Part shown: positions 4,368-44,454 of the stretch, in pieces
Numbering within the stretch: position 1 is the stretch's first letter
How the letters are laid out: each line of letters starts with the position of its first letter
Notes under the pieces: generated by a model
Seen by the model: the letters and a program-made list of their open reading frames with translations, nothing else
Database searches by the model: none
What the model was told of the DNA's origin: nothing
Source: Patescibacteria group bacterium
GTDB taxonomy: Bacteria > Patescibacteriota > Microgenomatia > UBA1400 > PJMF01
Reading direction: 5' to 3'
DNA: 45,091 nt
Assembly (NCBI GenBank): GCA_018816385.1
Contig: JAHIVK010000010.1
Coordinates: 1 to 45,091, forward strand
Translations under genes and position numbers: made by a program

Positions 4368-5311
4368 GTGGATCCAACTTTCAAACCGATTTAGTGGCTT
4401 TATATAGGAAGGCAATTTCAAGTGGCTTGAGTCTGGATGAAGTTAGACACAAAATAGAACGTCATGTAGCTAGACTGCAAACCACTAATTTACTTGAAGC
4501 TGAGCGAGCTCAGACTAGAAAAAAACAGCAGCGAGCGACCATCCCCAGAGCTATTCGTTGGGGAGCCATTCTGATTCCAGTGGTTTTTATTGGTGTGGGT
4601 TTTTACTTGGTTGGCAGTGCGGTTATGCCGATCTTGGGTTACTATGTGGCGCCACCTGAGCATACTAATCAGAATAAACTGACATCTCCCATTCCAGAGG
4701 ATGAAGTTTTGGATGTCACACCTTTGGTTATCACTCAAACTCAGACTACTAATCAGTTGCCAAACACGCCTCCTTTGGTGATTGATGAAACACTGGATTA
4801 CACTAATCTGGTTAACTGGTTTGATGCCGAAACGATGTCGGGTCTTGTTTTGGAAGATAAAAGCCAGGTGGGAGATAGGGTCGGCACAGAGTATCAGTTG
4901 GATATTCCCGCTCTCAATTTAGAAAATGTGATGGTCAAAGTGGGTGGCAGTCAATTGGATAAAAACTTGGTCGCTTATCCAGGTACAGCTTTGCCAGGAG
5001 AGTACGGCGCTCCAGTTATTTTTGGTCACTCCATCTTGAGACAATTTTATAACCCCAGTCCCAAAAACCCCAGACGATATATGTCAGTTTTTAGTACCAT
5101 CATGACTTTGAAAGTCGGCGATAAGATCTTCTTAACTTATGATGACGTCAAGTACACATACATGGTTCAAAGCAAGAAAGAAGTTCAACCCACAGATGTG
5201 CAAATTTTAACTCAACAGTATGATGCCAGGCGATTGAAGTTGGTAACTTGTGTTCCTGAAGGCACTTATTTAAGGCGGGGCGTGGTGACAGCCCAACTGG
5301 TAACTGAATAG
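4364..5311 (+). CDS. Sortase family transpeptidase with an N-terminal TM anchor
   Basis: Catalytic signature LKLVTCVPEG (TLxTC-type Cys), upstream His in VIFGHSIL, downstream Arg in YLRRG. Confidence 0.85.
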   Translation: MSGSNFQTDLVALYRKAISSGLSLDEVRHKIERHVARLQTTNLLEAERAQTRKKQQRATIPRAIRWGAILIPVVFIGVGFYLVGSAVMPILGYYVAPPEHTNQNKLTSPIPEDEVLDVTPLVITQTQTTNQLPNTPPLVIDETLDYTNLVNWFDAETMSGLVLEDKSQVGDRVGTEYQLDIPALNLENVMVKVGGSQLDKNLVAYPGTALPGEYGAPVIFGHSILRQFYNPSPKNPRRYMSVFSTIMTLKVGDKIFLTYDDVKYTYMVQSKKEVQPTDVQILTQQYDARRLKLVTCVPEGTYLRRGVVTAQLVTE

Positions 5312-13095: not shown

Positions 13096-13489
13096 CGCAT
13101 TGCTTACTTTCTTTCCCGAAAAGGAGTTCAGTCCCTTTCGTTATTACCACTGGCCTCTTTAATGTACTACCTTATGTTTGTTGTCTTTTCCAAGATTGTT
13201 TCTAATTATTTAGAAACTCTCTCCTGTATTTGATTTGGCTCAAGGTTCCCTGAGTCCTTCAAAAGTAAGCAAGTAGTTTTATCTCTCCTTTATCAACACT
13301 CTCTTTGCAACCGTAACCACAAAGACTCTGGCCTTGCTCTAAAGAAGAGCGATTTTGTGAAACATAAGCGTACTCATATTTTCATTAACAAAATCTAAGT
13401 TGCAGTATAAAGAATGAAGGCACTAAAAATCAAGGGTAATTGCTATCTATAGACATCAATAAATTGAGGGCGAAATAAAATTACAAATC

Positions 13490-13506
13490 GACCCGCTACG
13501 CGGGTC
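13490..13506 (-). promoter_or_regulatory. GC-rich hairpin gacccgc-tac-gcgggtc downstream of the VR and the target-gene stop
   Basis: 7-bp perfect stem, about 47 nt past the stop at 13553 on the minus strand. Confidence 0.45.
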
Positions 13507-13552
13507 AAGGGACCAAGTAACAAAAATCCAAAAGAACCAAGAATTCAAGAGA

Positions 13553-16150
13553 TCAAGTTCCAAGAACTACAACGACACGGAAGCCAACGTAGCCAAGCGA
13601 GTCCGACGGACGAAGCCAACGGGCGCGGGCGGCACCACCAGGGCCGGAGTGGCCAACGAGGACACGGACAGGACCGCCGCCATCACGATATTCATCCTCA
13701 GTCCATTCATATGTATTCGTGCCAACCTCCATGCGATTTAGAAGCATATTTAGTTCAGCTGCAGTAGGCATGCGAACTTCTAAATTTGAGGGGAGACCTA
13801 GTTTGGATAAAATCTCTGATTTATTTCTTACAATATCTCCATGAGCTGTATCCCAAGTAACATTAAATCTATTAGTATGACCAAGCTCTGCACTTATCAT
13901 TGTTTCGTCATAGGTGTCCCTAGACATCGGTTTTGGCATGACCTCCGTAACAAACCAGCCTCCTTTGTTGTATATTTCGGGAAAGTCGATTTTTCCACTT
14001 TTGACTTCTTCCCAATACCATTTTCTAAGGAGTCTCCCCACGGTGTGATCATCCCTTTCGGCAGGAGATAAAGATTCGTACACTCGTAATCCTGGATATC
14101 TTTCTTCAATCCTGGCTAAAAAGTCATCAACATCCATTCTCCTCAAGTCATCCGGCGTGCCTATATCTAGCTTAGGAATACTTCTTACTCCAATGTGTTC
14201 AGTGTCGTTAGCAAACTTCTCAAGTGCTTCCAAGGGGATACTTCTTGGTAGTTCTGGAATCTCAAATACCGATCCGGAAGCTGGTTTCAGCTTATCTCTC
14301 CAACTTTGTTCCTCATCACGCTGAAATTCAGATGATGATGTGGTTTCAGATGAAGCTGTCCCCATTGGATTTTCACTGCTCAGTGCTACAGCACCTGCCA
14401 TTTCAGAGGGCAGCACATACCCTTTTTCTTCCGCTGGTTTATTTATTGTAACTTTGATCTCGCCCGAAGCATTAGTAATTAAATCAAAGGCGCTGAGGAT
14501 TTTCTGAAGTGTTTTACGTTCCTCCGGAGTGCTGAGAGTCTTTGGATCTCTGACGAATTCACCGAGTTTTGATTGCATATACTCGCCAAAATTCTGTCCA
14601 CGGGCCTGTGCAAGCTCCCATTCACTAAATAGCTTAAACAAGGTGCCGGGATCTAAAAAGTTCGTATTTAGTGTTGTCTCAGTGTTTCCTTGAGGGTCAA
14701 TACCCAGCGCAGTTTTTATTTCTGGCTTGAGGCCTTCAAAGTCTCTATTGTGGACCTTTTGCATCAGTTCTGCAGCTTTGCACAATTTCTCTATATATTT
14801 CAGCTCAGATGCCCCAAGTTTCAAAACGCCGTTTTCTTCAATGAGTTTGGCCAGGATAATATCATTCATTTCCGATGCGGGCATGTAACTTACTTCAACA
14901 CCCGTCAGCTCTCTCAGAATTGCCGGATCCATTTCCTCACGCTGTTTAGTACGCTCATCTTTAGGATTACCTGTGAGAATGGTGATGAAGTTTTCAGTAA
15001 TGTCAAATACTTGTCCATTAAATCCGGGTATTTGAATTTGATCACCAGGTTTTGCTCCCATCATGAACTTTTCTGCTAACTGAGTCCTAGTTGCACCACC
15101 AGTGTACTCATCACCAAGATATCCAACTCTTCTTTCTAAGGCTCTAGGAATGGGTCCTGGTCTTACAGCACTTTGAACATTTCCATCCTCACCTGTCCAC
15201 AATTCACGATAGCCAAATAAATCTCTTGGAGTTGTTCCTTCATGCCAGTTTACAATCTCGTATCCACCAGTAAGGGAGTTTAAAACATAAATTCCCAACT
15301 GGGTCTTGCCAGTACCAGTAGATCCAACTAAAAATATTTTGTTTCCTGCGATTGCCTCTCGTTTAATTCTATCAATGAGCTGAATCCTTGAAGGTGTTAA
15401 CACAACTCGAGATTCTCTGAGTTGCCTTTTATATTCAAGCAGTTTTTGTGTTTCTAGATAACCTAATGTTTCGGCAGAGGCCGTTTGCTCTATACCTTTT
15501 CGGGTTGACTCCAACCCATCTACCTTCCCTTGAAATTGAGTAATTTGATCTGCCGTACTTTGGACAAGCTTTCCATGATCTCGTTTGCTTGACAGATAGC
15601 GTGTATAAATAGCTTGTCGCAATTTACCCGCAACCCTGTCAATGTCACGCACATCCTTCATTGGCTTTCTTGCGGCTTGATAAAAACCGACTTCTCTTGC
15701 TAATTCTTCCTGAAACTTTTCTCTAACCTGAGGATGGGAAAGGATTTCTCCAATCTTGGTTTTTATTTCTTTTCGATGGTCAGGATTGTTTGTCTGATCA
15801 CTTGTAGTGTTATTGACCTCATTTTGGGAGGCGCCAGTAAAAACCTGTCGTACAGCATTAACTCTCTTATTGGATGAAAAAGAATCATCCAGTTGAGCCT
15901 CCAAATCACGCAAGCTTATATCGCCGTTAATTTGGATTTTGGAGGTGTCTCCCGCAGACGGACGAAAGTATTCTTCCATGTATCCCAGAACGGCAAAACA
16001 TCGATCTTCAACATTTTCGTTTGAAAGATGTTCTGGATTTTCTTGGAGGGGCAAGTTTTCTGTAAACCGGCTGACTGACAACGGAGCTACACGGTACCGC
16101 GCTTGTTGTATTTGTTGTGTTGAAAATGATTCAGACGATGATTCTGGCAT
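13553..16150 (-). CDS. DGR target protein: AAA+ (MoxR/AAA_5-like) ATPase with a C-terminal C-type-lectin/FGE-like variable domain
   Basis: Walker A LVGSTGTGKT, ILTGNP, DPAILRELTGVEVSY. C-terminal features VRMPTAAELNML, YEWTEDEY, and GFRVVVV at the end. The VR covers the last ~40 codons. Confidence 0.85.
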   Translation of the reverse strand: MPESSSESFSTQQIQQARYRVAPLSVSRFTENLPLQENPEHLSNENVEDRCFAVLGYMEEYFRPSAGDTSKIQINGDISLRDLEAQLDDSFSSNKRVNAVRQVFTGASQNEVNNTTSDQTNNPDHRKEIKTKIGEILSHPQVREKFQEELAREVGFYQAARKPMKDVRDIDRVAGKLRQAIYTRYLSSKRDHGKLVQSTADQITQFQGKVDGLESTRKGIEQTASAETLGYLETQKLLEYKRQLRESRVVLTPSRIQLIDRIKREAIAGNKIFLVGSTGTGKTQLGIYVLNSLTGGYEIVNWHEGTTPRDLFGYRELWTGEDGNVQSAVRPGPIPRALERRVGYLGDEYTGGATRTQLAEKFMMGAKPGDQIQIPGFNGQVFDITENFITILTGNPKDERTKQREEMDPAILRELTGVEVSYMPASEMNDIILAKLIEENGVLKLGASELKYIEKLCKAAELMQKVHNRDFEGLKPEIKTALGIDPQGNTETTLNTNFLDPGTLFKLFSEWELAQARGQNFGEYMQSKLGEFVRDPKTLSTPEERKTLQKILSAFDLITNASGEIKVTINKPAEEKGYVLPSEMAGAVALSSENPMGTASSETTSSSEFQRDEEQSWRDKLKPASGSVFEIPELPRSIPLEALEKFANDTEHIGVRSIPKLDIGTPDDLRRMDVDDFLARIEERYPGLRVYESLSPAERDDHTVGRLLRKWYWEEVKSGKIDFPEIYNKGGWFVTEVMPKPMSRDTYDETMISAELGHTNRFNVTWDTAHGDIVRNKSEILSKLGLPSNLEVRMPTAAELNMLLNRMEVGTNTYEWTEDEYRDGGGPVRVLVGHSGPGGAARARWLRPSDSLGYVGFRVVVVLGT
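13566..13690 (-). repeat. DGR variable repeat (VR) at the 3' end of the target CDS
   Basis: By my manual alignment of 122 positions, 22 differ from TR. Of those, 21 are TR adenines on the coding strand, changing 15 codons, all nonsynonymously. Confidence 0.9.
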
Positions 16151-26646: not shown

Positions 26647-27792
26647 GTGCCAAATTTACCCACTTTGCCCTCTGCTTATCTATTGGAACTTGGCAGTACG
26701 CCAGAGTTATCTTGGGCAGAACTTGATAGTCTATTTGGAGACAGGGTTAAAAGAGTAGATACTAATTTGGCTATTATAGATCAACCCCAAGAAACTGCCG
26801 ATCAATTAATTGATACTTTGGGAGGTACCATCAAGATTTTTCAAGTTCTAGATACTTTGCCTTTGACCACTTCCAATCAAGAACTGGAAATAAAATTACT
26901 TAAATTACTTGAAACTAATCAGAAATTAAAGTTCTTTGTGGCAGAAATTAATCGCCATCACTTACCTGCCATCGATTTGTCTAACATTAAAACTCGCCTT
27001 ACCGAAGCTGGCCAAACTGTCCGCTATATGGCAGGCCCCAGGCAGGGTTTGTCAGCCGCTATCCTGAGACACAAAACTGGCGTCAAGGAGTTGGCCGTCA
27101 TTAATACACCCGAGCACATTTATTTAGCTCAAACTTTGGCTGTTCAAGATATTGATGACTGGACCAAAAGGGATCGGGGCAAGCCATTTGCCGATCGCCA
27201 AAGAGGCTTGTTAACTCCCAAAGTCGCCCGGATGATGGTTAACTTAGCCGGACCCAACAGACAAAGAATCATCTATGATCCATTTTGTGGCACAGGCACC
27301 ATCTTAATGGAAGCTGGAATATTGGGTTTTGAGCGACTGGTGGGCAGTGACCTGGATCCAGACGCAGTGACAGGATCAAGCCAAAATCTAGAATGGTTAC
27401 AAACTAATTACCAAATAACTGTAGGGATTAATATTTTTCCGGCTGATGCCACCAAGGCCCAACCCCAACCAATTCCAGACGTAATTGTGACTGAACCTTT
27501 CCTGGGCAAACTCAAGCCTAAAGCCCATCAAGTGCCGAATATTGTGAAGGGTTTGACCAAACTTTACATTGGCACCCTTAAAAATTGGCACCACTGGCTG
27601 AAACCCGGATCAGAAGTGGTGATAATTTTTCCCCGATTTATCGAAGCTTCTGGACCATCAGTTTATGAGAACTTGATTGACAAATTCGATCAACTTGGGT
27701 ACACTACCACTCTTGAACCGATCATTTATGCCAGACCAAAGGCCATCGTTCAAAGGCAGATAGTTAGGTTAAAAGTAAAGCAATATACTTGA
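26647..27792 (+). CDS. SAM-dependent methyltransferase (UPF0020/Trm11-like putative RNA or DNA MTase)
   Basis: Motif I DPFCGTGTILMEAG. The motif IV position reads VTEPFLG rather than (D/N)PPY. Confidence 0.6.
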   Translation: MPNLPTLPSAYLLELGSTPELSWAELDSLFGDRVKRVDTNLAIIDQPQETADQLIDTLGGTIKIFQVLDTLPLTTSNQELEIKLLKLLETNQKLKFFVAEINRHHLPAIDLSNIKTRLTEAGQTVRYMAGPRQGLSAAILRHKTGVKELAVINTPEHIYLAQTLAVQDIDDWTKRDRGKPFADRQRGLLTPKVARMMVNLAGPNRQRIIYDPFCGTGTILMEAGILGFERLVGSDLDPDAVTGSSQNLEWLQTNYQITVGINIFPADATKAQPQPIPDVIVTEPFLGKLKPKAHQVPNIVKGLTKLYIGTLKNWHHWLKPGSEVVIIFPRFIEASGPSVYENLIDKFDQLGYTTTLEPIIYARPKAIVQRQIVRLKVKQYT

Positions 27793-34207: not shown

Positions 34208-34256
34208 AGGTTAATTGTAACAGACAACTCCTGCTTCTCGGAGTAAGATGGCGAAG

Positions 34257-34340
34257 TCGTCCGTAGCTTAAGCGTACAACCAAATCGTCCGTAGCTTAAA
34301 CATACAACCAGATCGTCCGTAGCTTTAACGTAGGACGAGA
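34257..34340. repeat. Three tandem 28-bp units starting tcgtccgtagctt, abutting the tRNA 3' end
   Basis: Units at 34257-34284, 34285-34312 and 34313-34340. The third can fold as tcgtcc...ggacga. Confidence 0.8.
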
Positions 34341-34412
34341 GCCAGGAAGGGGGATCGGACCCCTGACCTACGGTTTACGATACCGTCGCTCTACCGACTG
34401 AGCTATCCTGGC
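34340..34412 (-). tRNA. tRNA-Thr (anticodon CGU), with no encoded CCA
   Basis: Manual fold: acceptor gccagga/tcctggc, D stem gctc/gagc, anticodon stem acggt/accgt, loop atCGTaa, T stem agggg/cccct, T loop tccgatc. Confidence 0.8.
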
Positions 34413-34695: not shown

Positions 34696-36411
34696 TTAAC
34701 TAAATAGACTTTCGAGTGATTTAATTATTTTGGTTGCTGTTTTAATTTTTGGTTTTTTAATTTTCCTTTGAAGTTTTTCAAAAAGTGGCAATTTATCCTC
34801 AATTAATGTTGGTTGAATAGGTTCTAGTTGAAACTTTTTGGGCGCGGAGATAATGGTAGTTGATGGATTTAGGCTCTGATTAGACTGCCAATAATTAATT
34901 TGTTCTAAAATATATGCCAAACCGTTTTCAAGATTGTCTTTGTCTTCTAAGCTGGCAATAAAAACAGGATAATCAAGGTCGTTATTTTCTTTTGAGAGTT
35001 TAATGCAAAATACTAGCGACATTTTTTGATTTGCTTGTTGGCTTCCAGAGGTAACAGTTCTAGTGGTAGTACCTTTATAAAAAATTCCTCTTGGAAGGCT
35101 TACTATGGCTTTTAGTTGGCATTTAGAAGAAATATATTTTCTTAAAAATTCATCTTGAGAATTGGCAAAAAAACCTTCTGGTAAAATTAAACAAATTCTT
35201 CCATTTGATTTACAACTTAAAATAGCTTGTTGTATTGAAAGGGCATATTCAGAAGGATTATCTCTCAAGTCTTTGTTGCCCATTTGTTGAGATAAGTGTC
35301 GGTATACTTGATCTAGATCATTGAGTGTATTTTCTGGATCATACTTGTTGCCTCCGGCTGGATTGCTTATCACTATATCCCAACCATTACCGTGGTTGAC
35401 TAAACCATTGGCTTGTTGAATTGGAATATTGTCAATTTCTTCTCCCATGATACCAAAACATAACGCCAGATAGGTTTTAGTAACATAATAGGGTAAATCG
35501 GCAATATCAATGCCCATAATATTTTCTAGTTTAACCCCTGAATTTATGGCCGCGCTAATAAAACTTCCACTGCCACATTCAAAATCAATCACTCTATCTC
35601 GATCTGTAAACTTGACCAAGTTTGCCATGAAACTAACAACTGGGCTGGGTGTAATAAATTGATTTAAGTGAATCCCCTGAAAGGCTCTGAGAATTTGGTT
35701 TTTAAATTCTGTGCCGATATCTTCATTTAAGGATTGTTGCCAATCATATTTAATTAAAAGTTCTCTAATAGCAAGTTGACGGTCGTGATATCCATCCAAA
35801 GAAACATAAGGCTGCTTTGAAACGTAGTTTGACTGGTTTTTTAAGAATTCATATATTTGAAGAGTAACATTTTTAATTATTGCTGGGGTCAATTTTTTGT
35901 CTTTACCCAAAATGTAAACTGAGGCAAGATCATAAAATAACTCTTTAAAAGTTTGTGGAGTAAGAATTGGTTTGTGAGACTCTATACCATAAAGTTTTTT
36001 AAGTTCTTCATAGGTAATAATCTTTTTTAGTTCTTCACTGTCATCAATTATTTGTCCATCTTTTTCATCTCGAAAATACTTATAAAATTTAATTGATCGA
36101 CCAACTGTAGTGGCAAAATATTTCGGAGGATGAGGAGAAAATTGAAGAAATCTAATGTATGAAATTGCTTGAGTTTTAGCATTTTGTTCTGAACCGTTTT
36201 TTCTTTTTGATTCAACTATGAGTAAGGGGCTTTTATTTGCATAGTAAACAATGTCTGGCTCTAATGAACGACCACTTCCAACCGAAATACTGGCATCAGA
36301 TTTGATTTTTAAATTTTCTCTATTTCCGGCTTGAGGATAGCCGTATTGAGAAAAGGCAGGAATAATATCATGAACTATGTATGAATCTTCTGATCGTTTG
36401 GTACTTGACAT
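34696..36411 (-). CDS. Fusion of an N-terminal PD-(D/E)xK (HSDR_N-like) nuclease domain and an N6-adenine methyltransferase-like domain
   Basis: EPDIVYY...LLIVESKRK near the N-terminus. Motif I VIDFECGSGSF. Motif IV reads ISNPAGG instead of NPPY/F. Confidence 0.7.
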   Translation of the reverse strand: MSSTKRSEDSYIVHDIIPAFSQYGYPQAGNRENLKIKSDASISVGSGRSLEPDIVYYANKSPLLIVESKRKNGSEQNAKTQAISYIRFLQFSPHPPKYFATTVGRSIKFYKYFRDEKDGQIIDDSEELKKIITYEELKKLYGIESHKPILTPQTFKELFYDLASVYILGKDKKLTPAIIKNVTLQIYEFLKNQSNYVSKQPYVSLDGYHDRQLAIRELLIKYDWQQSLNEDIGTEFKNQILRAFQGIHLNQFITPSPVVSFMANLVKFTDRDRVIDFECGSGSFISAAINSGVKLENIMGIDIADLPYYVTKTYLALCFGIMGEEIDNIPIQQANGLVNHGNGWDIVISNPAGGNKYDPENTLNDLDQVYRHLSQQMGNKDLRDNPSEYALSIQQAILSCKSNGRICLILPEGFFANSQDEFLRKYISSKCQLKAIVSLPRGIFYKGTTTRTVTSGSQQANQKMSLVFCIKLSKENNDLDYPVFIASLEDKDNLENGLAYILEQINYWQSNQSLNPSTTIISAPKKFQLEPIQPTLIEDKLPLFEKLQRKIKKPKIKTATKIIKSLESLFS

Positions 36412-36442
36412 ATGTTTGGTTTTATCTTATATAATGTCTTTG

Positions 36443-36481
36443 GATCGTGGAACACGATCGGCAAACCCCTCCGGGGGTTTG
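36443..36481. other. Two adjacent GC-rich hairpins (gatcgtg-gaa-cacgatc and caaacccc-tccg-ggggtttg) between DUF3800 and the methylase fusion
   Basis: Seen directly. They separate the overlapped four-gene operon from the fifth gene. Confidence 0.5.
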
Positions 36482-36488
36482 TTTCTTT

Positions 36489-37235
36489 TTATGGAAATAT
36501 TTTTAAACCGTAACCTAAAAAATCATCCTTTGGAAATTGACGATACATTTTAGGCTTGATAATTCTAAAGGCTAGGTTTTCTCTTTCAGGATAAAGAACA
36601 TAATTTGCTAAAGGGTAAGCAATAAGGTCACACAACTGAGTTCCAGCCACATTGGCTTCTTTTTTTTGAAAATCTATTTCTGTAAATCTATTGATCAATC
36701 TGTTTGAATCTACATATTGGGTGCCGTTTGAAATAATAATTTGATATTGATCATGCAATTTAGAGTCTTCGTTTTTCCCTCTTGCCTCAGCAATAACTTC
36801 AACTTTACAGCTCTTAAATTTGTCGGTTAGAAAAATTGTTCTTTCTAAAACAAAAGTAAGAGAAAGATCATAAGGATTGTTTGCTTGAGGCCCATATAAA
36901 TTAATCAGCTTGTCTTTAAGTACAGCGCATGCAATAACTGTAAATTCAGTTTTTTCAATTAGGTTATCTAAATCGTTATAAAAATCACTTCTTAATTTTG
37001 GATCGCCTAAAGACTTGAAAGCAAATTGCCATTTTCTAATATCTCTTGAGTGTAAAATAATATCGGTGTTATCAAAATATTTTAATTTGATTTTATTAAC
37101 GTTGGGGATAAATGTTTGTTTATAATATTCTTTTTCAATAACGCACCCGCATAATAATAAAATAGGAAACTCTTGTTTGGTTGTTTTTAATCCATGATGT
37201 CCTGATTCGTCTAAAAACAGGTAGTAATTCTTCAT
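36489..37235 (-). CDS. DUF3800 family protein
   Basis: N-terminal YYLFLDESGHHG and C-terminal GTQLCDLIAYPLA, the pattern I recall as typical of DUF3800. Confidence 0.65.
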   Translation of the reverse strand: MKNYYLFLDESGHHGLKTTKQEFPILLLCGCVIEKEYYKQTFIPNVNKIKLKYFDNTDIILHSRDIRKWQFAFKSLGDPKLRSDFYNDLDNLIEKTEFTVIACAVLKDKLINLYGPQANNPYDLSLTFVLERTIFLTDKFKSCKVEVIAEARGKNEDSKLHDQYQIIISNGTQYVDSNRLINRFTEIDFQKKEANVAGTQLCDLIAYPLANYVLYPERENLAFRIIKPKMYRQFPKDDFLGYGLKIFP

Positions 37236-38050
37236 ATAACATCCTTTCGTTCACCTCTAATCACCTGTTCTGTTTTTTCAATTAAATCATTCAGCATTTT
37301 TTCTGCTATTTGTATATTGTTTTGATACTCGGTTTCATTATTTTCCCTTTTTGCCTCCATCGCTTTTTCATGAAAATTATTCATTTTTAGATATTCTTTT
37401 TCAATATTTTTTTGGACTTTATCTGAGATTAACGGTATTTTTATTTCTGCAATACAATTTTGCGTGAGCTCCGTCTGGCCAGATACACCACTTTCATATC
37501 TTTCGATTTGTTGTTGTCCAAAAATTGTTTTTAAATAAGCCTCTACATAAAATGAGTTAATTTTTTTAAATCCAAGAGTATTAATATGTCCAGTAATTCC
37601 AATTTTTTGATTGATAGGTTTTCCAAGAAATAGAGAACTTCTTCCAATACTTCCTGCGCCACTTCTTACAATTAATATATCTCCATATTTTGGTTGAGAC
37701 TTAGATATTCTTTGAAAATGAGAATCGACAATTTGCTTTAAAGATGAGTAATCAATACCAGTAAACTTTATATCAATGACGCTTATCATTGGTATTCCTT
37801 TTGATACATATTTATCGCCTTTTTTTGTTCTTAAACCGTCACCTTGATTACATCTAGTTAAGTCTTTTCCCAACTTTTCTATTTTAAATTTTTTATCCAT
37901 CTCCATTAATGTTTTTTCAAATTTAGGATGCCAATAATCCGTGCTTAGTCTACTAAACGGTTTTTCGTCCATCATATCTTTTAGAGTTTTGTCAATTCTA
38001 ATCATTACTCCGTTTTTTTCATCTACTATCTGTTTTGTATTATTTGTCAT
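37232..38050 (-). CDS. Restriction-modification specificity subunit, HsdS-like with a single TRD (half-size)
   Basis: KGIPMISVIDI, YGDILIVRSGAGSIGRSSLF and GQTELTQNCIAEIKIPL, followed by a C-terminal helical region. Confidence 0.7.
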   Translation of the reverse strand: MTNNTKQIVDEKNGVMIRIDKTLKDMMDEKPFSRLSTDYWHPKFEKTLMEMDKKFKIEKLGKDLTRCNQGDGLRTKKGDKYVSKGIPMISVIDIKFTGIDYSSLKQIVDSHFQRISKSQPKYGDILIVRSGAGSIGRSSLFLGKPINQKIGITGHINTLGFKKINSFYVEAYLKTIFGQQQIERYESGVSGQTELTQNCIAEIKIPLISDKVQKNIEKEYLKMNNFHEKAMEAKRENNETEYQNNIQIAEKMLNDLIEKTEQVIRGERKDVI

Positions 38051-39038
38051 AAAACTCCTTGAATTTAGCTAATATTGTATCAAAGTTACCTTGTAAAAGT
38101 TTTTCTGTACTGGCTAAAAATACCGTATAGTTAAAATCTGTTATTGTTTCTTTTTGAAGAATCAAAATACTTGTTTTAGCATTAGTGCCTTCCTGCTTGA
38201 AAGTCTCCCTGGGTAAAGAAACAATACCTACCACTTTTGTTTTTTCTGCAATAAATTGTCTAACATAGTGATAGGTGGAGTTTGCCAGGATTCCATCTGG
38301 AATGATAATGGCTATAAACCCACCTTGTTTAGCCAATTGAATAAATCTATCAATAAACAGAATCTCGATGGCAATTGATTCAACATCTTTAATATTTGGC
38401 GGTGGCGTTGAGTTTCCACCCCAAGTTTGTGAACCCCACGTGGCTTCACCCCATAAAGCTTTCTGATTATCATCGATAGTTTTTTTTGACCTTTTTTTAT
38501 ATCCAAGAATATTAAAACTTTTTAAATGTTCAAGTATGTTAATTGACTCTTTTGTATTTTTATCCTTTAAAGAAGAAAAGCCCATGCCTCCGTATGGCGG
38601 ATTACCAACCACCGCGTCAAATTCTTTGAGCCCTCCCTTTTTATAACTAAAAACTTTTTGAGGTAGCTCCAAAAGACCATCTTGCTGATGAAAATGATCA
38701 AGCATTTTTTTCTTATCAGCTTTAAATAAGTCATGAAGAATTGAAATTTCTTCCCACCTTTTTACAACTTCTCCGTCAATATCTATACCAAAAATGTAGG
38801 GAGTTTTATGTACTGGATGATATCCGGTAAAATCACTGGTAACAGCTGTTTTAAGAAATATACCTTCACCGCAAGCAGGGTCGATGACAGAGGGGTAATG
38901 TGTTGGCTTGTGACTTTGCCACCTTTCCGTATCTTGGTCTTCTTTATTTTTCATAACTAAAAGCATTTGAAAGATAAAGTTGACCACTATTTTTGGAGTG
39001 TAAAAAATGCCTAAGTCTTTTTGCTTTTGATTATTCAT
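38040..39038 (-). CDS. N6-adenine DNA methyltransferase (gamma class, Eco57I/TaqI-like)
   Basis: GIFYTPKIVV, motif I DPACGEGIFL, motif IV VVGNPPYGG. Confidence 0.8.
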   Translation of the reverse strand: MNNQKQKDLGIFYTPKIVVNFIFQMLLVMKNKEDQDTERWQSHKPTHYPSVIDPACGEGIFLKTAVTSDFTGYHPVHKTPYIFGIDIDGEVVKRWEEISILHDLFKADKKKMLDHFHQQDGLLELPQKVFSYKKGGLKEFDAVVGNPPYGGMGFSSLKDKNTKESINILEHLKSFNILGYKKRSKKTIDDNQKALWGEATWGSQTWGGNSTPPPNIKDVESIAIEILFIDRFIQLAKQGGFIAIIIPDGILANSTYHYVRQFIAEKTKVVGIVSLPRETFKQEGTNAKTSILILQKETITDFNYTVFLASTEKLLQGNFDTILAKFKEFYDK

Positions 39039-41955
39039 AAAGGTTAAATACTGTAATAGCTATCAATTCTTCTGATTGTCTTAGTTCAAGTTTACCATTT
39101 AATGTTTCAATTTCTTTCATTTGTTGTTTTAGGGCTTCTTCCTCTTCTTTAATTAAAATTGTATTGAGCTGTCTAAGCCGTAGTTGTTTCTTTTGAATTT
39201 TTTGATCAAAGCCTCTTTTTTCTTGAAAGTCTAAAGTTTTCTCCCTTTTTCGTTTGATTTCTTCTAGTTCATTTTTGACCTTGTCAATTGAGTCTTTGGT
39301 TTTTAATGAATAGTTGTCCCAATAACGATTAATTCTGTCCATTTCCCTGATATAGAGTTTTTCATTTCTGTTTTGATATTTTTTAAGTATATTTGTTTTC
39401 CATTTATTCCAGTGATTATATAATTCTTTTTTTTCTAGGGGTGATTTATTGACGGTTTTTGATAGTATTTCACTATTTGCTTCGACCAAAATTTTTGATG
39501 TTTCAACATCTAAGGGTAAAAAGTTCCCATTGGCTTTAACAAAAGCAAGCGGAGCTAGGATTTCATCTTCCTCTACAGCTGAAATTTGTAATTTAAAAAC
39601 ATATATTACCCCATTGTGATACTTGAGAATCTTTTGTTTTTGTTTCCCTAATTGTTGAATGTTTATTTTGATAGTTGGAATAGGATTAGTTGATATTTTT
39701 AATGTTTCATCAAGAATTTTCTTTATTAACGGGTGGTCGTTATGAACCCTAGATATTTTCCCTTTTTCATTCTCTTTTTCTTCTCTAAATAAGAACTTCT
39801 TTTTTTTACCATCTAACATTATTTGAGCAATATTCGACTTTTCTAAATAAGCAAATTTGTCTTTATAGTATTCTTGACAAAGTCGTAATAACGCAGAGTC
39901 ATACTCGTTTAATGTTTGGTTTACATCAATTTGAGTTTGCTTGAATAGTTTTGAGACTGGAGAATCAAATTGCTCAAGTATAAGACTTTTTGTTTTCTGA
40001 ATATCAGTAGAGACGGATGCTTTTAAATTTTGCTGCAATTGTTGAAATGCTTTATCAATTTCTTCCGGAGTTTTACAGTTTTGATAAATGTCTAAGATTC
40101 TTTGTTCAAATTCAATCTCGGCTTCAATATTACCAAGAATTTCGTCGGAGGCTCCAAATAAACCATTAAAAAGGCCTAATTTTTCAGTTAATAATTCCAG
40201 GACTCTTTTATCTGCATAATTTTTGGTATTGAGTAGGTTGGCAATAATAACTTCATATTTTTGACCATAGCGATGAACCCTGCCGATTCTTTGTTCAATT
40301 CTCTGAGGATTCCAGGGAAGATCATAGTTGATTAATAAATTAGCAAATTGGAGATTTAAACCTTCAGATCCAGCCTCGGTGGTTAAAAAAACCTTTTTAT
40401 TGGGATTTGATCGAAATTCGTAAACCAGGGCTTGCCTGATAGCTATTTGTTTTGAGTATTGAATGGCTGACTCTGGAAATTCTTTTTTCCATTTATCATA
40501 TGCTTTGGCAGAATGTTCCGAAACGTTATGACCGCTAAATGGCACAAAGCCAACATTGGCTTTATTAAGTATTTTTTGTAAATACTTTTGAGTTCTGGTG
40601 CTTTCCGTAAAAACAACAATCTTTTGAGGCCAATTTCTTTTTTTAGCAATTTTCAGTACTTTTAAAGTACTTTTGATCAATGCTTCACCTTTTGTGTTAT
40701 GAGTAATTGATTTAGCTAAATTATAGTATTTTTTTAACTCATTTATTTCTTCAATGATTTCATTATCACTGAAACTTGAAGATACTCGTCCTCGAGAAAT
40801 TTTTGATTCATTGATTTCGACTTCTTCGACACTTAAGGACTCCTCATCAAAATCAATGCTTGTTTCTTCTTTTAACTCTTTTTTTCTTAAACTAATCTCA
40901 TACTCTAATCTTTCGTAAAGTTTCTTCAAGGTTGGAGCTATGGCAAAGGAGGAGCTAGCAAGAAGTTTTCTGTATACCAGAATCATTAGATTTCTTTGAG
41001 TTGATTCGATTGAAGCTATATTCTTCCGTTGAAGGTAAGTAGATACTTGCTCATACAATTTTTGTTCATCTTGAGTGGGAGTAAAATCCTGAGTTAAAGA
41101 ATTTCTGGGTGGAAAATTTACATACTCTTTTACTTGCCTTCTCAAAGTTCTGGTTACTATTCCAGTAGGTGAAAAATTATCTTGGGCATCACCGATGACT
41201 AAATTTCTAAGAATCTTTAGTGTTTCGTTCTTTAAGCTCGGATTTTCGTTAATCTTATCAATAAATCTTGTCTTAAAGTGATAGATATTACCCAGTAATT
41301 TGTTGTCAATAAATGAGGCTAGCCCATAAAGCTCGAGAAGACTATTTTGAAGAGGGGTGGCAGTGAGGAGTAGTTTAGGTTTATCTTCTATTGCTTCCCG
41401 TAAAGCAAAGGCCATTTTTGATGCGTCTTTTCCTTTATAAACCCTCCTTAATCTGTGAGCTTCATCAACTACTACTAAATTCCAAGGCTGCTTTTTCACG
41501 AGGGGCATTCTTTTGTAGAGAAATGGAAGTGAACATATATAAATCGAGTCATAAGTAAACGGAGTTTTCTTTCCCTTGTTTATTTGGTTTTCAAAATATT
41601 TTGAGTCAAGAACAGTTGATTTTAGTCCGAAATGTGTTTCAAGCTCTTCTTTCCACTGAGTTCTTAATGAAGCAGGGACTATTATTAGTATTCTTCGTTT
41701 CTCTTCTAACCATAACTGTGAAAGGACAATTCCTGCTTCGATAGTTTTTCCTAAACCGACTTCATCTGCAAAAATACAACCTCTAGCAAGCGGGCTATTA
41801 AATGCGTATATAGCTGATTGAATTTGGTAGGGATTTAAGTCAATGGTAGACTTAGCAAGTAATGAAGATAAACGCTCAAGTTGACCAGCAGACTTTTTTA
41901 AACTAATTTTCTCTGCCCAATATTTCAATGCAAAAATGTTTATACCTTTATTCAT
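39031..41955 (-). CDS. SNF2-family helicase/translocase with a ~330 aa C-terminal extension ending in a coiled coil
   Basis: DEVGLGKT, VVVDEAHRLRR, LLLTATPLQNS, TEAGSEGLNLQ, WNPQRIEQRIGRVHRYGQK. I saw no nuclease motif. Confidence 0.88.
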   Translation of the reverse strand: MNKGINIFALKYWAEKISLKKSAGQLERLSSLLAKSTIDLNPYQIQSAIYAFNSPLARGCIFADEVGLGKTIEAGIVLSQLWLEEKRRILIIVPASLRTQWKEELETHFGLKSTVLDSKYFENQINKGKKTPFTYDSIYICSLPFLYKRMPLVKKQPWNLVVVDEAHRLRRVYKGKDASKMAFALREAIEDKPKLLLTATPLQNSLLELYGLASFIDNKLLGNIYHFKTRFIDKINENPSLKNETLKILRNLVIGDAQDNFSPTGIVTRTLRRQVKEYVNFPPRNSLTQDFTPTQDEQKLYEQVSTYLQRKNIASIESTQRNLMILVYRKLLASSSFAIAPTLKKLYERLEYEISLRKKELKEETSIDFDEESLSVEEVEINESKISRGRVSSSFSDNEIIEEINELKKYYNLAKSITHNTKGEALIKSTLKVLKIAKKRNWPQKIVVFTESTRTQKYLQKILNKANVGFVPFSGHNVSEHSAKAYDKWKKEFPESAIQYSKQIAIRQALVYEFRSNPNKKVFLTTEAGSEGLNLQFANLLINYDLPWNPQRIEQRIGRVHRYGQKYEVIIANLLNTKNYADKRVLELLTEKLGLFNGLFGASDEILGNIEAEIEFEQRILDIYQNCKTPEEIDKAFQQLQQNLKASVSTDIQKTKSLILEQFDSPVSKLFKQTQIDVNQTLNEYDSALLRLCQEYYKDKFAYLEKSNIAQIMLDGKKKKFLFREEKENEKGKISRVHNDHPLIKKILDETLKISTNPIPTIKINIQQLGKQKQKILKYHNGVIYVFKLQISAVEEDEILAPLAFVKANGNFLPLDVETSKILVEANSEILSKTVNKSPLEKKELYNHWNKWKTNILKKYQNRNEKLYIREMDRINRYWDNYSLKTKDSIDKVKNELEEIKRKREKTLDFQEKRGFDQKIQKKQLRLRQLNTILIKEEEEALKQQMKEIETLNGKLELRQSEELIAITVFNLYE

Positions 41956-42404: not shown

Positions 42405-43052
42405 TTGTTCAGTATGTTATACAATTCAACAAGGAAAAGAATTTTTGAAATGCTGAAACAGGCAATTACTAGTGGGGATTCGATTTCTCTCCGCGCTATA
42501 GGAGGCGAGCTTGATTTAGCTGCTAATACAATCCTTTACCATATAAAAAAACTTGAAGAGAAGGGTCTTGTGGTAAGAAATACAGGTGGAAAAGTGGTAC
42601 GAGTGAACTCCCCCGATGACGGTTCTGCTATTGCTTATTTACCTCTTTTGGGAAATGCTGCTTGTGGTCAACCACTTAATACAATAGCTGATGAAAACAC
42701 AATTCGAATGATTCCAGTGCCACTTAATATTTTGGGCAGAAATTCTAAACAAAACCTATACTTAATTGAAGCAGTTGGAGATAGCATGGCTGAAAAAATT
42801 GAAAATGGCGACTATGTAATTTTTGAGCCAAATCCAGCTCCCCTTCCAGGTCAGATTGTTGTTGCTAGGACAAAAGACGGCTTTACAATAAAAGTGTTTA
42901 ACAAAACGGCATCCCAATGTATTCTGGAGCCTTTAAACCCCGATTACCTGCCTTTGGTTTTTGAGAAGAGTGAAATTGATGAATCTTTTAATATTGACGG
43001 CGTAGCTGTAGGTATCTTTAAACCGCAACAAAATTTAAGAGGAGGTGATTAA
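42405..43052 (+). CDS. LexA-like repressor: winged-helix DNA-binding domain plus S24 peptidase domain
   Basis: LRAIGGELDLAANTILYHIKKLEEKGLV (wHTH). AVGDSM has the Ser nucleophile and DGFTIKV the Lys. Confidence 0.75.
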   Translation: MFSMLYNSTRKRIFEMLKQAITSGDSISLRAIGGELDLAANTILYHIKKLEEKGLVVRNTGGKVVRVNSPDDGSAIAYLPLLGNAACGQPLNTIADENTIRMIPVPLNILGRNSKQNLYLIEAVGDSMAEKIENGDYVIFEPNPAPLPGQIVVARTKDGFTIKVFNKTASQCILEPLNPDYLPLVFEKSEIDESFNIDGVAVGIFKPQQNLRGGD

Positions 43053-43276: not shown

Positions 43277-43345
43277 ATGGATCAATTAGTTTATAAACTC
43301 TACGGCCCCACGCTAGCGGAGATTAAAATTGTAGAAAGAAAGTGA
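43277..43345 (+). other. 22-codon mini-ORF MDQLVYKLYGPTLAEIKIVERK, resembling the conserved C-terminal tail of RM/BREX-type methylases
   Basis: Translated by hand. Its TGA shares one base with the ATG of the next ORF (TGATG). Confidence 0.5.
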
Positions 43346-43782
43346 TGGATTCAAAGCAGTTTAAGGGACAAAAATATAAAGTCGGACAAACCAATGTGGC
43401 TAAGATTGTTAAACAAGACTTTTTAGCTAAAGGTTTCAATGTCCGTACTTACGAAAATAATTTAGCAACTACGTCTGGACTTGTGAAAATTCTGGAGATT
43501 ATTTCTGAGAAACCTAATTCAGAGCGTTTTGTTATGAGGTGGGATAAAAATCAGCAAACCGCGGATATAGATATTTATAAAGGTAAAAATTTCAGGAAAG
43601 ATCTATGGAGTCAAGATGGCTTTAAAGGCCACCATCCACAAATAAAACAAGAAAGAAATAAAGAAAGAGTTTTTAAATTAGATATTGCAACTCCGAAAGG
43701 CCCAATTTTCAAAGGACTTATCAAGGTGGCAGTCCACCACAAATTACGCCTAGAAGATAGCATTGGTTTACATGACGGATAA
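43345..43782 (+). CDS. Hypothetical protein
   Basis: ORF only. No recognisable motif. Confidence 0.45.
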   Translation: MDSKQFKGQKYKVGQTNVAKIVKQDFLAKGFNVRTYENNLATTSGLVKILEIISEKPNSERFVMRWDKNQQTADIDIYKGKNFRKDLWSQDGFKGHHPQIKQERNKERVFKLDIATPKGPIFKGLIKVAVHHKLRLEDSIGLHDG

Positions 43783-43862
43783 ACAAATCAGTTAAGTTAG
43801 TTTTTTACAAACTCTACGGCCTCGAACCGGAGGAGATAAAAATTGTGGAAGGGAATAAATAG
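43776..43862 (+). other. Second methylase-tail-like fragment, ...LVFYKLYGLEPEEIKIVEGNK, with no start codon
   Basis: Translated by hand. Similar at DNA level to 43277-43345 (aaactctacggcc...gagat.aaaattgt.gaa). Confidence 0.5.
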
Positions 43863-43866
43863 AATT

Positions 43867-44454
43867 ATGAAAAATATAAAAAGAGAACCAATAAAAGAAC
43901 ATTTTATTTATAGAGGGTTAATATATGAACCGTACTATACAACTAGGATACATAGTGGCTATTCACAATTAAGTGTTCGAGGACCTTTTTGCCCAGAAGA
44001 TAGGGTCACTCTTGTTTATAAGAATGAAGGACAACCTTTAGACGGATTAATTTGTTCGGTGTGCTCGACCGAATATCAACACGGAAAAGATATCCAAACG
44101 TTACGGGAATCAGCCCATAGGGTGTATGAGGCCAGTCAAAGACAAAAAATTAATCTTATATCATTAGATTTACCCCCAACGCTTGTAAAAGCTGATGATG
44201 AAAATGACGATTACTGGATCGAGGCAAGATTGGGACAAAAACAGGGAAAACTTCAAGGCCTTATTTATATGGGAAGAAAAGTTAAAGGATCCCAAAAGAA
44301 AACTGATTATGTTCAAATCATGTTAGACCCAGATGACGAGCAGTTTAGATTTGATAAAAGCAATCAAAATCCAATGGATTTACTGTCAAAAATAACCGTT
44401 GAGTTTAGAAATACAATTGTTAGACAAACAGTAAAACAAGAAAAGTCTAAATAA
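43867..44454 (+). CDS. Hypothetical protein with a possible Cys-pair zinc-binding site
   Basis: ORF with CPED...CSVC. Start set at the ATG at 43867. Confidence 0.45.
   Translation: MKNIKREPIKEHFIYRGLIYEPYYTTRIHSGYSQLSVRGPFCPEDRVTLVYKNEGQPLDGLICSVCSTEYQHGKDIQTLRESAHRVYEASQRQKINLISLDLPPTLVKADDENDDYWIEARLGQKQGKLQGLIYMGRKVKGSQKKTDYVQIMLDPDDEQFRFDKSNQNPMDLLSKITVEFRNTIVRQTVKQEKSK

Follow-up and report, generated by a model that had tools for sequence, protein, structure and literature searches.

A four-gene restriction-modification-like cassette with an SNF2 ATPase, and a DUF3800/small-RNA module embedded in it, in a Patescibacteria contig

The window analysed here is a stretch of 45,091 nucleotides (nt) from a Patescibacteria group bacterium (assembly GCA_018816385.1, contig JAHIVK010000010.1, positions 1 to 45,091). 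Its minus strand carries genes for a DrmD/RapA-like SNF2-family ATPase (39031-41955, 974 aa), an N6-adenine DNA methyltransferase (M; 38040-39038, 332 aa), a specificity subunit (S; 37232-38050, 272 aa), a DUF3800 protein (36489-37235, 248 aa) and a nuclease-methylase-like fusion, here called R-M* (34696-36411, 571 aa). These genes probably represent two separate things, a four-gene restriction-modification (RM)-like defence cassette and a DUF3800/small-RNA module that is inserted into it. Judging from gene order in related loci, the conserved unit is SNF2-M-S-R-M*, an unnamed, putatively defensive RM-like cassette with these four proteins as core genes 1 to 4. The DUF3800 gene is embedded cargo, and a candidate small-RNA gene is convergent with it (36405-36493, plus strand).

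Metagenomes, and metagenome-assembled genomes (MAGs) of the Patescibacteria, Elusimicrobia and other groups, contain a great many SNF2 homologues of about 975 aa with at least 50% identity. In three neighbourhoods of such homologues, the SNF2 gene is followed by genes for an N6-methylase (~325 aa), an S-like protein (~275 aa) and a fusion of HSDR_N and N6-methylase (~570-600 aa). The genes in these neighbourhoods abut one another and are free of DUF3800. When the SNF2 alignment is searched against one genome per species, at least 597 relatives are returned. All seven loci with an SNF2 that is at least 50% identical carry M, S and R-M* in this order, and none of the loci at 35-44% identity do. 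A metagenome scan seeded with the R-M* protein yields 80 loci, and S, M and SNF2 precede R-M* wherever upstream DNA exists. Dereplication leaves 68 distinct cassettes, with the S|R-M* junction visible in 58. Among the 39 loci whose upstream DNA extends for at least 3 kb, 37 have SNF2 upstream of M. Intergenic gaps are -7 to +25 nt in most cassette loci, and in one Actinomycetota MAG (L013, 9023-10822) M and S are fused as one 599-aa open reading frame (ORF). The arrangement is not due to chance, since dozens of independent loci show the same order of genes that abut or overlap. The cassette is spread patchily over many phyla of largely uncultivated bacteria, including the Patescibacteria, Elusimicrobia, Firestonebacteria, Planctomycetota and Actinomycetota. 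The SNF2 gene overlaps the start of M, and its product diverges in step with R-M*. At the level of gene neighbourhoods, these patterns show that the four genes are tightly coupled and inherited together.

The preliminary description of this DNA had made co-occurrence across genomes a test of its reading before the comparison was made. Co-occurrence is found for SNF2, M, S and R-M*. The composition that had been proposed, SNF2 with M, S and DUF3800, does not hold, since the unit that recurs is SNF2-M-S-R-M*. Similarly, the PD-(D/E)xK-methylase fusion had been placed outside the operon as a fifth gene that follows on, but it is directly coupled to S in most relatives. Because the conserved unit consists of four abutting genes in the 58 cassettes, with SNF2 in 37 of 39, the R-M* gene is assigned to the core. 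The local layout had been described correctly. The minus-strand ORFs are intact at the positions given and overlap by 8 nt (SNF2/M), 11 nt (M/S) and 4 nt (S/DUF3800), and a 77-nt spacer with two hairpins (36463-36480 and 36443-36459) separates DUF3800 from the R-M* gene. The domain calls for the five genes agree with Pfam, PADLOC and NCBIfam.

The SNF2 protein matches Pfam SNF2-rel_dom (121.8 bits) and Helicase_C (69.4 bits). Motifs I (GLGKT), II (DEAH) and VI (QRIGRxHRYGQ) are intact, and the motif residues are invariant in alignment A1. The protein is homologous over its full length to DrmD/BrxH-type SNF2 proteins, and a C-terminal region of this type is joined by a coiled-coil tail. It scores 580.7 bits against the PADLOC DrmD model (PDLC02619), 577 bits against NCBIfam DrmD_b (NF038318; cut-off 950) and 257 bits against NF038317 (cut-off 610). 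It is a DrmD homologue but not a DrmD equivalog. The nearest relative in the Protein Data Bank (PDB) by sequence is RapA (E 4e-41).

M is a small gamma-class methylase with matches to Pfam N6_Mtase (77 bits) and Eco57I (47 bits). It contains motif I as DPACGEG and motif IV as NPPY, and its best PDB match is RM.BsaXI (E 6e-14). M has no target-recognition domain (TRD), and the Pfam and NCBIfam profile searches give no HsdM_N match for it. Motif IV reads NPPY in 56 of 57 homologues and NPPF in one, and this conservation shows M to be a predicted methylase with the canonical catalytic motif. M and the methylase part of R-M* are paralogues.

S consists of a single TRD between conserved N- and C-terminal segments. 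It matches type I specificity subunits over one TRD, and the PADLOC Specificity_I models cover one half only (for example aa 43-245 of S against positions 184-384 of 392), as had been anticipated when the protein was called a half HsdS. The best PDB match is the S subunit of PacII (7vru_C), from an M1M2S complex. The window and locus L006 share 83% identity in SNF2, 82% in M and 78% in R-M*, whereas their S proteins are only 48% identical. The termini of the two S proteins are ~90% identical and the central TRD is divergent. A TRD that is swapped between close relatives, as this alignment shows, is the classical signature of specificity switching.

R-M* matches Pfam N6_Mtase (72 bits) and, weakly, HSDR_N. 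An N-terminal PD-(D/E)xK nuclease domain (D53, E67, K69) is followed by a helical linker and a methylase domain. In alignments of 6 and 59 homologues (A4 and A5), D53 never varies and E67-x-K69 reaches at least 90% conservation. The S-adenosylmethionine (SAM) motif DFECGSG is invariant, as are N350, P351, G353 and Y357. Motif IV reads NPAGGNKY in the window and NP[AS]GxxxY in 87 of 87 homologues, and NPPY occurs in none of these. The fusion and its atypical methylase had been noted in the preliminary description, and both are recovered here. The best PDB match by sequence is BsaXI, and PacII M1 and M2 are also matched. An AlphaFold model (predicted local distance difference test score, pLDDT, 83) is most similar in Foldseek to the BsaXI RM subunit (8w0p, E 6e-19), followed by the IIL/IIG enzymes DrdV and BpuSI and then by type I HsdM. 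The predicted structure shows the fold of a type IIB/IIG RM polypeptide. In a search of 1.84 billion representatives, the N-terminal 240 aa occur in just 28 clusters (50% identity), each of which has this architecture. Among PLSDB plasmids, R-M* finds generic methylase matches only. The preliminary description had offered both DUF3800 and the PD-(D/E)xK domain as candidate nucleases. The PD-ExK candidate stands, with its catalytic residues conserved, and DUF3800 drops out as the nuclease of this system: DUF3800 is optional cargo, as described below, and therefore the PD-ExK domain, as a predicted nuclease, is the candidate.

In the proposed mechanism, S, probably as a dimer, would hold M and R-M* at a bipartite DNA target, in the manner of M1M2S and type IIB assemblies. 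M would methylate host (self) sites. The degenerate methylase domain of R-M* would serve in assembly, in read-out of the target adenine, or in both; METTL3/METTL14 is a precedent for an active enzyme that is paired with a degenerate paralogue. The PD-ExK domain would cut unmethylated DNA. SNF2 would supply ATP-driven translocation or remodelling of double-stranded DNA, which is the job of the HsdR motor in type I systems.

Several points weigh against this account. For the cassette, we infer methylation, cleavage, complex formation and phage protection. The NP(A/S)GxxxY motif of R-M* might be catalytically active. Two M-S-R-M* trios (L126, 4108-7575; L170, 6003-9442) have no adjacent SNF2 or other helicase and are flanked by housekeeping genes (CoaE, a PurF-like amidotransferase, a sigma-54 response regulator). 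Related SNF2 proteins (35-44% identity) adjoin complete type III Mod/Res pairs, which already include a motor. This arrangement is found in ~52 of the 73 more distant loci (within L015-L091), from many phyla. The substitution of SNF2 for HsdR had been a central element of the preliminary description. The non-canonical RM-like operon and the lack of an HsdR-like ORF both stand, but the role of SNF2 as a restriction motor is uncertain.

Examples of the SNF2 and type III loci are L032 (9989-18204), L026, L053 and L050. The slot between SNF2 and Mod is often filled, by LmuB-like, AbiU-like, PDC-S02 or HEC-01A/AbiL-like genes and once by DUF3800, which lies beside the related SNF2 in L032 (Geothrix fuzhouensis). 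No DrmA, DrmB or DrmC is present among the L032 neighbours or the cluster representatives scanned. This SNF2 family therefore looks like a motor that is attached to different RM modules.

Alternatively, M, S and R-M* could form a self-sufficient, ATP-independent, type IIB-like enzyme. SNF2 would then be an accessory remodeller for RM systems generally, which clears proteins from invading DNA, recycles stalled complexes or counters anti-restriction. The type III loci and the two SNF2-less trios are both consistent with this account. RapA, the nearest solved relative of SNF2, is a recycling factor, and the R-M* fold is nearest to that of BsaXI, which needs no motor. However, a linked SNF2 is found in 37 of 39 informative cassettes, its translation is coupled to that of M, and it diverges in parallel with R-M*, which together suggest an obligate partnership in this clade. 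Moreover, the RM subunits of canonical type IIB enzymes such as BcgI and BsaXI retain an active NPPY methylase and work without a separate M. A self-sufficient trio with an accessory SNF2 is possible, but we consider it rather unlikely.

The second component, the DUF3800 protein, matches Pfam PF12686 (44.8 bits, cut-off 21) and no PADLOC model. A DE motif (D9, E10) is present in its N-terminal part and a QxxD motif (Q200, D203) in its C-terminal part, and these four residues are invariant in alignment A6 together with E150 and E156. The AlphaFold model (pLDDT 93, predicted template modelling score, pTM, 0.91) has an RNase H-like fold. Foldseek ranks RNase HII (1eke, E 4.5e-4) first among PDB matches and RNase HI next. 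This fold agrees with the RNase H-like fold that has been predicted in the literature for DUF3800 in retron type VII and in Cas12a2-linked proteins.

In a DNA alignment of the window with L006, a clean insertion of ~825 bp lies exactly at the S stop and R-M* start, between strongly conserved flanks (36412-37238, minus strand). It comprises the DUF3800 ORF and the small-RNA gene. The S stop and the R-M* start share GTTGTTTAATGTCAAG (TAATG) in L006, and a short ATATG is present at both edges of the insertion. The gap between S and R-M* is 25 nt or less in 49 of the 58 cassettes, and an insert is present in the remaining 9. No inserts are found at the other two cassette junctions in the 58 cassettes. 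DUF3800 occupies the slot in ~10% of cassettes, as several divergent lineages (window, L014, L105, L106-108, L115-117, L151/154), and is absent from the 49 with a closed junction. Other contents are Schlafen/AlbA_2-HATPase_c_4 proteins (L119, L131), RhuM (L120, L121) and Bro-N (L160). Cassettes with R-M* proteins that are at least 95% identical differ in slot content (Schlafen-type, RhuM or empty), which indicates rapid turnover. On the basis of these comparisons, the S|R-M* junction is a hot slot for embedded genes of predicted defence type.

A hidden Markov model (HMM) of the window's DUF3800 subfamily alone missed divergent members; a broader HMM recovered them and added L146 as the only new locus. 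There, a divergent DUF3800 gene (13441-14304, Pfam 30.7 bits) lies ~1.7 kb downstream of an insert-free cassette. In L108 (9114-9860), and also in L106 and L107, the embedded DUF3800 gene is split into 111 and 119 aa by an apparent frameshift, and the small-RNA element is intact.

Relatives of the DUF3800 protein with 57-78% identity occur in unrelated contexts, namely by a transposase fragment, in glycosyltransferase clusters or alone. The unit of DUF3800 gene and RNA is often start/stop-coupled to whatever gene is upstream. In two unrelated genomes it lies inside glycosyltransferase/polysaccharide clusters (L003, 10001-10744; L172, 8001-8753), and in L003 its start overlaps the stop of the upstream glycosyltransferase gene by 4 nt. 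A 43% relative and its small RNA are part of a classical type I operon in L174 (6317-15893), where they come straight after the HsdM gene and ahead of those for HsdS and HsdR. In L001 (2640-2713) and L002 (5300-5376), the DNA upstream of DUF3800 aligns to the 3' end of the window S gene, and a transposase (rve_3) fragment follows. By this alignment, L001 and L002 look like the remains of decayed cassettes in which only the DUF3800 gene and its small RNA survive.

These distributions bear on a five-gene account, in which DUF3800 is the dedicated second, or the main, nuclease of an integrated SNF2-M-S machine. The 4-nt stop/start overlap of S and DUF3800 is in keeping with such an account, as is the DUF3800 gene beside the related SNF2 in L032. 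It also accords with the recurrence of at least four divergent DUF3800 lineages at the same junction in six independent cassettes, so that DUF3800 may have a functional tie to the RM complex. On the other side, S abuts R-M* in the 49 insert-free cassettes, and the closest relative, L006, differs from the window by a clean insertion. Other cargo genes occupy the same slot, and the DUF3800 gene and its RNA are likewise coupled to unrelated upstream genes in unrelated contexts. By comparison of these loci, the version with DUF3800 as a subunit appears largely refuted, and we hold the five-gene account to be quite improbable. As a core subunit, DUF3800 is rejected on comparison with the insert-free cassettes, the clean L006 insertion and the unrelated contexts. 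The operon membership given to it in the preliminary description is replaced by that of optional embedded cargo, present in ~10% of cassettes and accompanied by the same RNA in unrelated contexts.

The candidate small-RNA gene lies on the plus strand. Its -35 box (TTGACA, 36405-36410) overlaps codons 1-3 of R-M* on the other strand and is followed by a -10 box (TATAAT, 36430-36435), a 5' hairpin (36443-36459) and a terminator hairpin (36460-36483) with a U-run. The TTA of the U-run is the complement of the DUF3800 stop codon (36489-36491). The 5' hairpin has 7-8 bp, with the consensus GAUYGKG...CMCRRUC, and the terminator hairpin has 10-14 bp. Across unrelated contexts, this DNA on the 3' side of DUF3800 is conserved, and a terminator scan independently finds the plus-strand terminator. 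Read antisense to DUF3800 and folded one at a time, all ten distinct sequences fold perfectly with G.U pairs (-23 to -34 kcal/mol); read in sense, C.A mismatches appear at the same positions (-15 to -28 kcal/mol). The sequence of the terminator stem varies between loci, with pairing always kept. A role of the two hairpins as a sense-strand operon terminator is rejected, as there is no U-run in sense and the C.A mismatches fall on that strand, whereas the antisense reading is a canonical terminator. The hairpins belong to the convergent small-RNA gene of the DUF3800 module.

A pattern-plus-fold scan of 2.23 Mb of locus sequence finds the element 14 times, each time convergent with this DUF3800 subfamily (14 of 14 loci). 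The sole other match in the 2.23 Mb is partial and lacks the terminator. Of 10 loci, 8 have promoter-like boxes (at least 9 of 12). The -10 box lies 6-17 nt ahead of the hairpin, and in seven of these loci the distance is 6-10 nt. In the window, the promoter boxes are not ideally spaced, with 19 nt as far as TATAAT or 17 nt as far as TATATA, which counts against a confident call; the small RNA is a candidate gene whose transcription is predicted. A MAFFT/RNAalifold consensus recovered only 4 pairs, from an alignment that is not structure-aware. An exact-pattern search for the RNA hairpin in viral contigs gives 0 matches.

Rfam contains no family that matches the window RNA, and no DUF3800-x family matches the 121-nt spacer even at E values up to 10. 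In L151, where the S|R-M* slot is occupied by another DUF3800 lineage, a DUF3800-IX RNA (4960-5023, minus strand; 47.8 bits against a gathering score of 36.8) is encoded antisense to that DUF3800 gene and ends on its stop codon. This layout links the window element to the DUF3800-associated RNAs of Weinberg et al. (2017), who described them and did not propose a function. The window RNA is either a further motif class or one that is absent from Rfam. The insertion may dampen R-M* expression, given that the -35 box overlaps the first R-M* codons.

The DUF3800 nuclease with its RNase H fold and the convergent RNA of ~50 nt, with its own promoter and terminator, would together form an independent two-part module. 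The RNA would regulate or partner the nuclease, as an antitoxin or a cofactor, and the module would act as an accessory or back-up defence rather than as an RM subunit. The simplest reading of the DUF3800 gene and its RNA is that they form an autonomous nuclease module, which is controlled by the RNA and relies on host operons to be expressed.

A bolder reading, which we put forward as speculative and expect to be wrong in at least some of its parts, is that the cassette represents an unnamed class of ATP-dependent RM systems. SNF2 would replace the HsdR motor, the nuclease would be borne by a pseudo-methyltransferase that reads the target base, and the S|nuclease slot would dock guards. The DUF3800 gene and its RNA would be one such guard, released when a phage disables the RM complex or host transcription, and comparable to PrrC or to type III toxin-antitoxin pairs. 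If this guard role is true, it would explain the hitherto unexplained DUF3800-associated RNAs. 

If the main model, rather than this bolder reading, holds, a widespread RM architecture from largely uncultivated bacteria would be added, in which the functions of type I are redistributed: SNF2 would be the motor, a degenerate methylase paralogue would carry the nuclease and a minimal M would methylate. Taken with the SNF2 and type III loci, it would suggest that DrmD-like SNF2 proteins are general add-on motors for RM systems and are not specific to DISARM. DUF3800 would gain a concrete unit, a gene with a convergent small RNA that recurs inside RM operons. More embedded defence genes could be sought at the S|nuclease junction.

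The surroundings of the cassette are those that had been described, an AT-rich island beside a tRNA gene. The guanine-plus-cytosine (GC) fraction is 0.29-0.35 over 35-42 kb of the window and about 0.41-0.45 elsewhere, and a tRNA-Thr(CGT) gene lies at 34339-34412. A tandem repeat adjoins this gene (34254-34337; 28 nt, 2.7 copies, 89% matches). A LexA-like repressor gene (HTH and Peptidase_S24; 42405-43052, plus strand) is divergent from the SNF2 gene, and the small ORFs beyond it have no Pfam match. The low-GC region reaches the window end. It contains a 52-nt direct repeat (43290-43341 and 43804-43855, 77% identity), whose copies sit just upstream of two successive small ORFs (43342-43782 and 43843-44454). 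Outside the low-GC stretch there is another methylase-like ORF (26647-27792, plus strand, 381 aa; PADLOC mad2, 68 bits).

The defence reading of the cassette follows from the TRD swap, the low-GC island, the spread over many phyla, the embedded defence-type genes and the variable slot content. A role outside defence, as an epigenetic regulator or a DNA-repair module that combines methylation with an SNF2 remodeller, is very improbable. SNF2 proteins such as RapA do have housekeeping roles, and phage protection by the cassette is a predicted property. However, the PD-ExK domain is conserved, and the swapped TRDs, the patchy distribution across phyla and the features of the island and slot also tell against such a module.

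Public annotations name the cassette proteins only as 'N-6 DNA methylase' or 'DEAD/DEAH box helicase'. The PADLOC check that had been recommended returns no named system that matches the whole cassette. The sole basis for calling it unnamed is that PADLOC-DB 2.0 and NCBIfam 20.0 contain no dedicated model for it; the literature search was incomplete, and an earlier paper may exist. The view that the gene set does not fit type I, ISP, IIG, BREX or DISARM is confirmed, and DrmA, DrmB and DrmC are not found among the scanned ORFs.

The cassette resembles type IIB systems (BcgI, BsaXI) in the domain order of R-M*, with PD-ExK, helical linker and gamma-class methylase, and in its separate S. An RM polypeptide with a separate, adjacent S is present, as judged from the Foldseek match to the BsaXI RM subunit and from D53, E67 and K69. 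In contrast to type IIB, the RM polypeptide carries NP[AS]GxxxY (87 of 87) in place of the canonical NPPY/F, a second, canonical M is always present and S has one TRD rather than two. About 95% of cassettes also have a linked SNF2 ATPase, and its presence argues for a difference from type IIB enzymes, which are ATP-independent and cleave twice, on both sides of the site.

Likenesses to type I systems are the separate M and S, TRD swapping, a PD-ExK domain of the HSDR_N type, an ATPase of the SF2 superfamily and embedded cargo such as RhuM and Schlafen-type ATPases. Unlike type I, the cassette has no HsdR; its nuclease and motor are on separate polypeptides and the motor is of the SNF2 family rather than the HsdR type. 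M scores 21 bits against hsdM TIGR00497 (cut-off 242.75) and lacks HsdM_N, and S is half-size (272 aa), with one TRD where type I has two. The module had been likened to type I/IIB. This likeness stands for the type IIB polypeptide order and the separate S, but not for HsdM_N, two TRDs or an NPPY motif in R-M*. PacII is similar in having two methylase-fold subunits with one S, and the window S is nearest to PacII S. As compared from the genes alone, the cassette differs from PacII in that one methylase-fold subunit bears a nuclease and a degenerate motif and that SNF2 is attached.

Class 1 DISARM is defined by the core triplet DrmA (helicase), DrmB (DUF1998) and DrmC (PLD), with the SNF2 protein DrmD and the methylase DrmMI. 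The cassette shares with it a DrmD-like SNF2 directly followed by an N6-adenine methylase and has S and R-M* in place of DrmA/B/C. Of the proteins scanned with PADLOC models for DrmA/B/C, namely the five of the cassette, the 10 other largest ORFs of the window and the L032 neighbours, SNF2 alone gives a match. A degenerate or variant class 1 DISARM (DrmD and DrmMI, minus DrmA/B/C) is scarcely credible: the SNF2 scores against DrmD (580 bits in PADLOC, 577 bits in NCBIfam DrmD_b) and the methylase behind SNF2 point towards it, but the DrmD score is under the NCBIfam cut-off of 950, DrmA/B/C are also not found in the related cassettes and, because S and R-M* are conserved instead, the architecture is a stable one and not a DISARM remnant.

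Hma is defined by a helicase, a 5-methylcytosine (m5C) methylase and an ATPase (HmaA/B/C). The cassette methylases are of the N6-adenine type, no HmaC-type ATPase is present and SNF2 scores 170 bits against HmaA, as opposed to 580 bits against DrmD. For MADS, which is defined by equivalogs of the MAD2 methylase and the MAD5 S subunit together with the other mad genes, the scores are 92 and 71 bits for MAD2 (cut-off 720) and 53 bits for MAD5 (cut-off 400). For BREX, PglX (NF033452) scores 35 bits (cut-off 500), and PglZ and BrxC have no match among the window proteins scanned. Membership in class 1 DISARM, Hma, MADS or BREX is rejected on these absent defining genes and scores far under the cut-offs.

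The SNF2 and type III Mod/Res loci, for which we know of no name, resemble the cassette in having a homologous SNF2 (35-44% identity) at the operon's 5' end and a variable slot for defence genes. They differ in carrying a standard type III pair and in the position of the slot, which is between SNF2 and Mod rather than between S and the nuclease. The window RNA resembles DUF3800-IX, a structured RNA with a 3' terminator beside DUF3800 whose L151 copy is convergent and ends on the stop codon. The window RNA, which consists of two adjacent hairpins, differs from the Rfam DUF3800 RNAs in having no covariance-model match. Defence genes that are nested within Hma, BREX, DISARM and type I systems are described in the preprint of Payne et al. 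(2024), the main text of which does not name DUF3800. The window is similar in that an unrelated effector gene in the same orientation is nested in an RM operon, as for PrrC and restriction-linked ORFs, and differs in that DUF3800 brings its own convergent small-RNA gene. By these comparisons, the cassette is a restriction-modification variant that is distinct from DISARM, Hma, MADS, BREX, type I and canonical type IIB.

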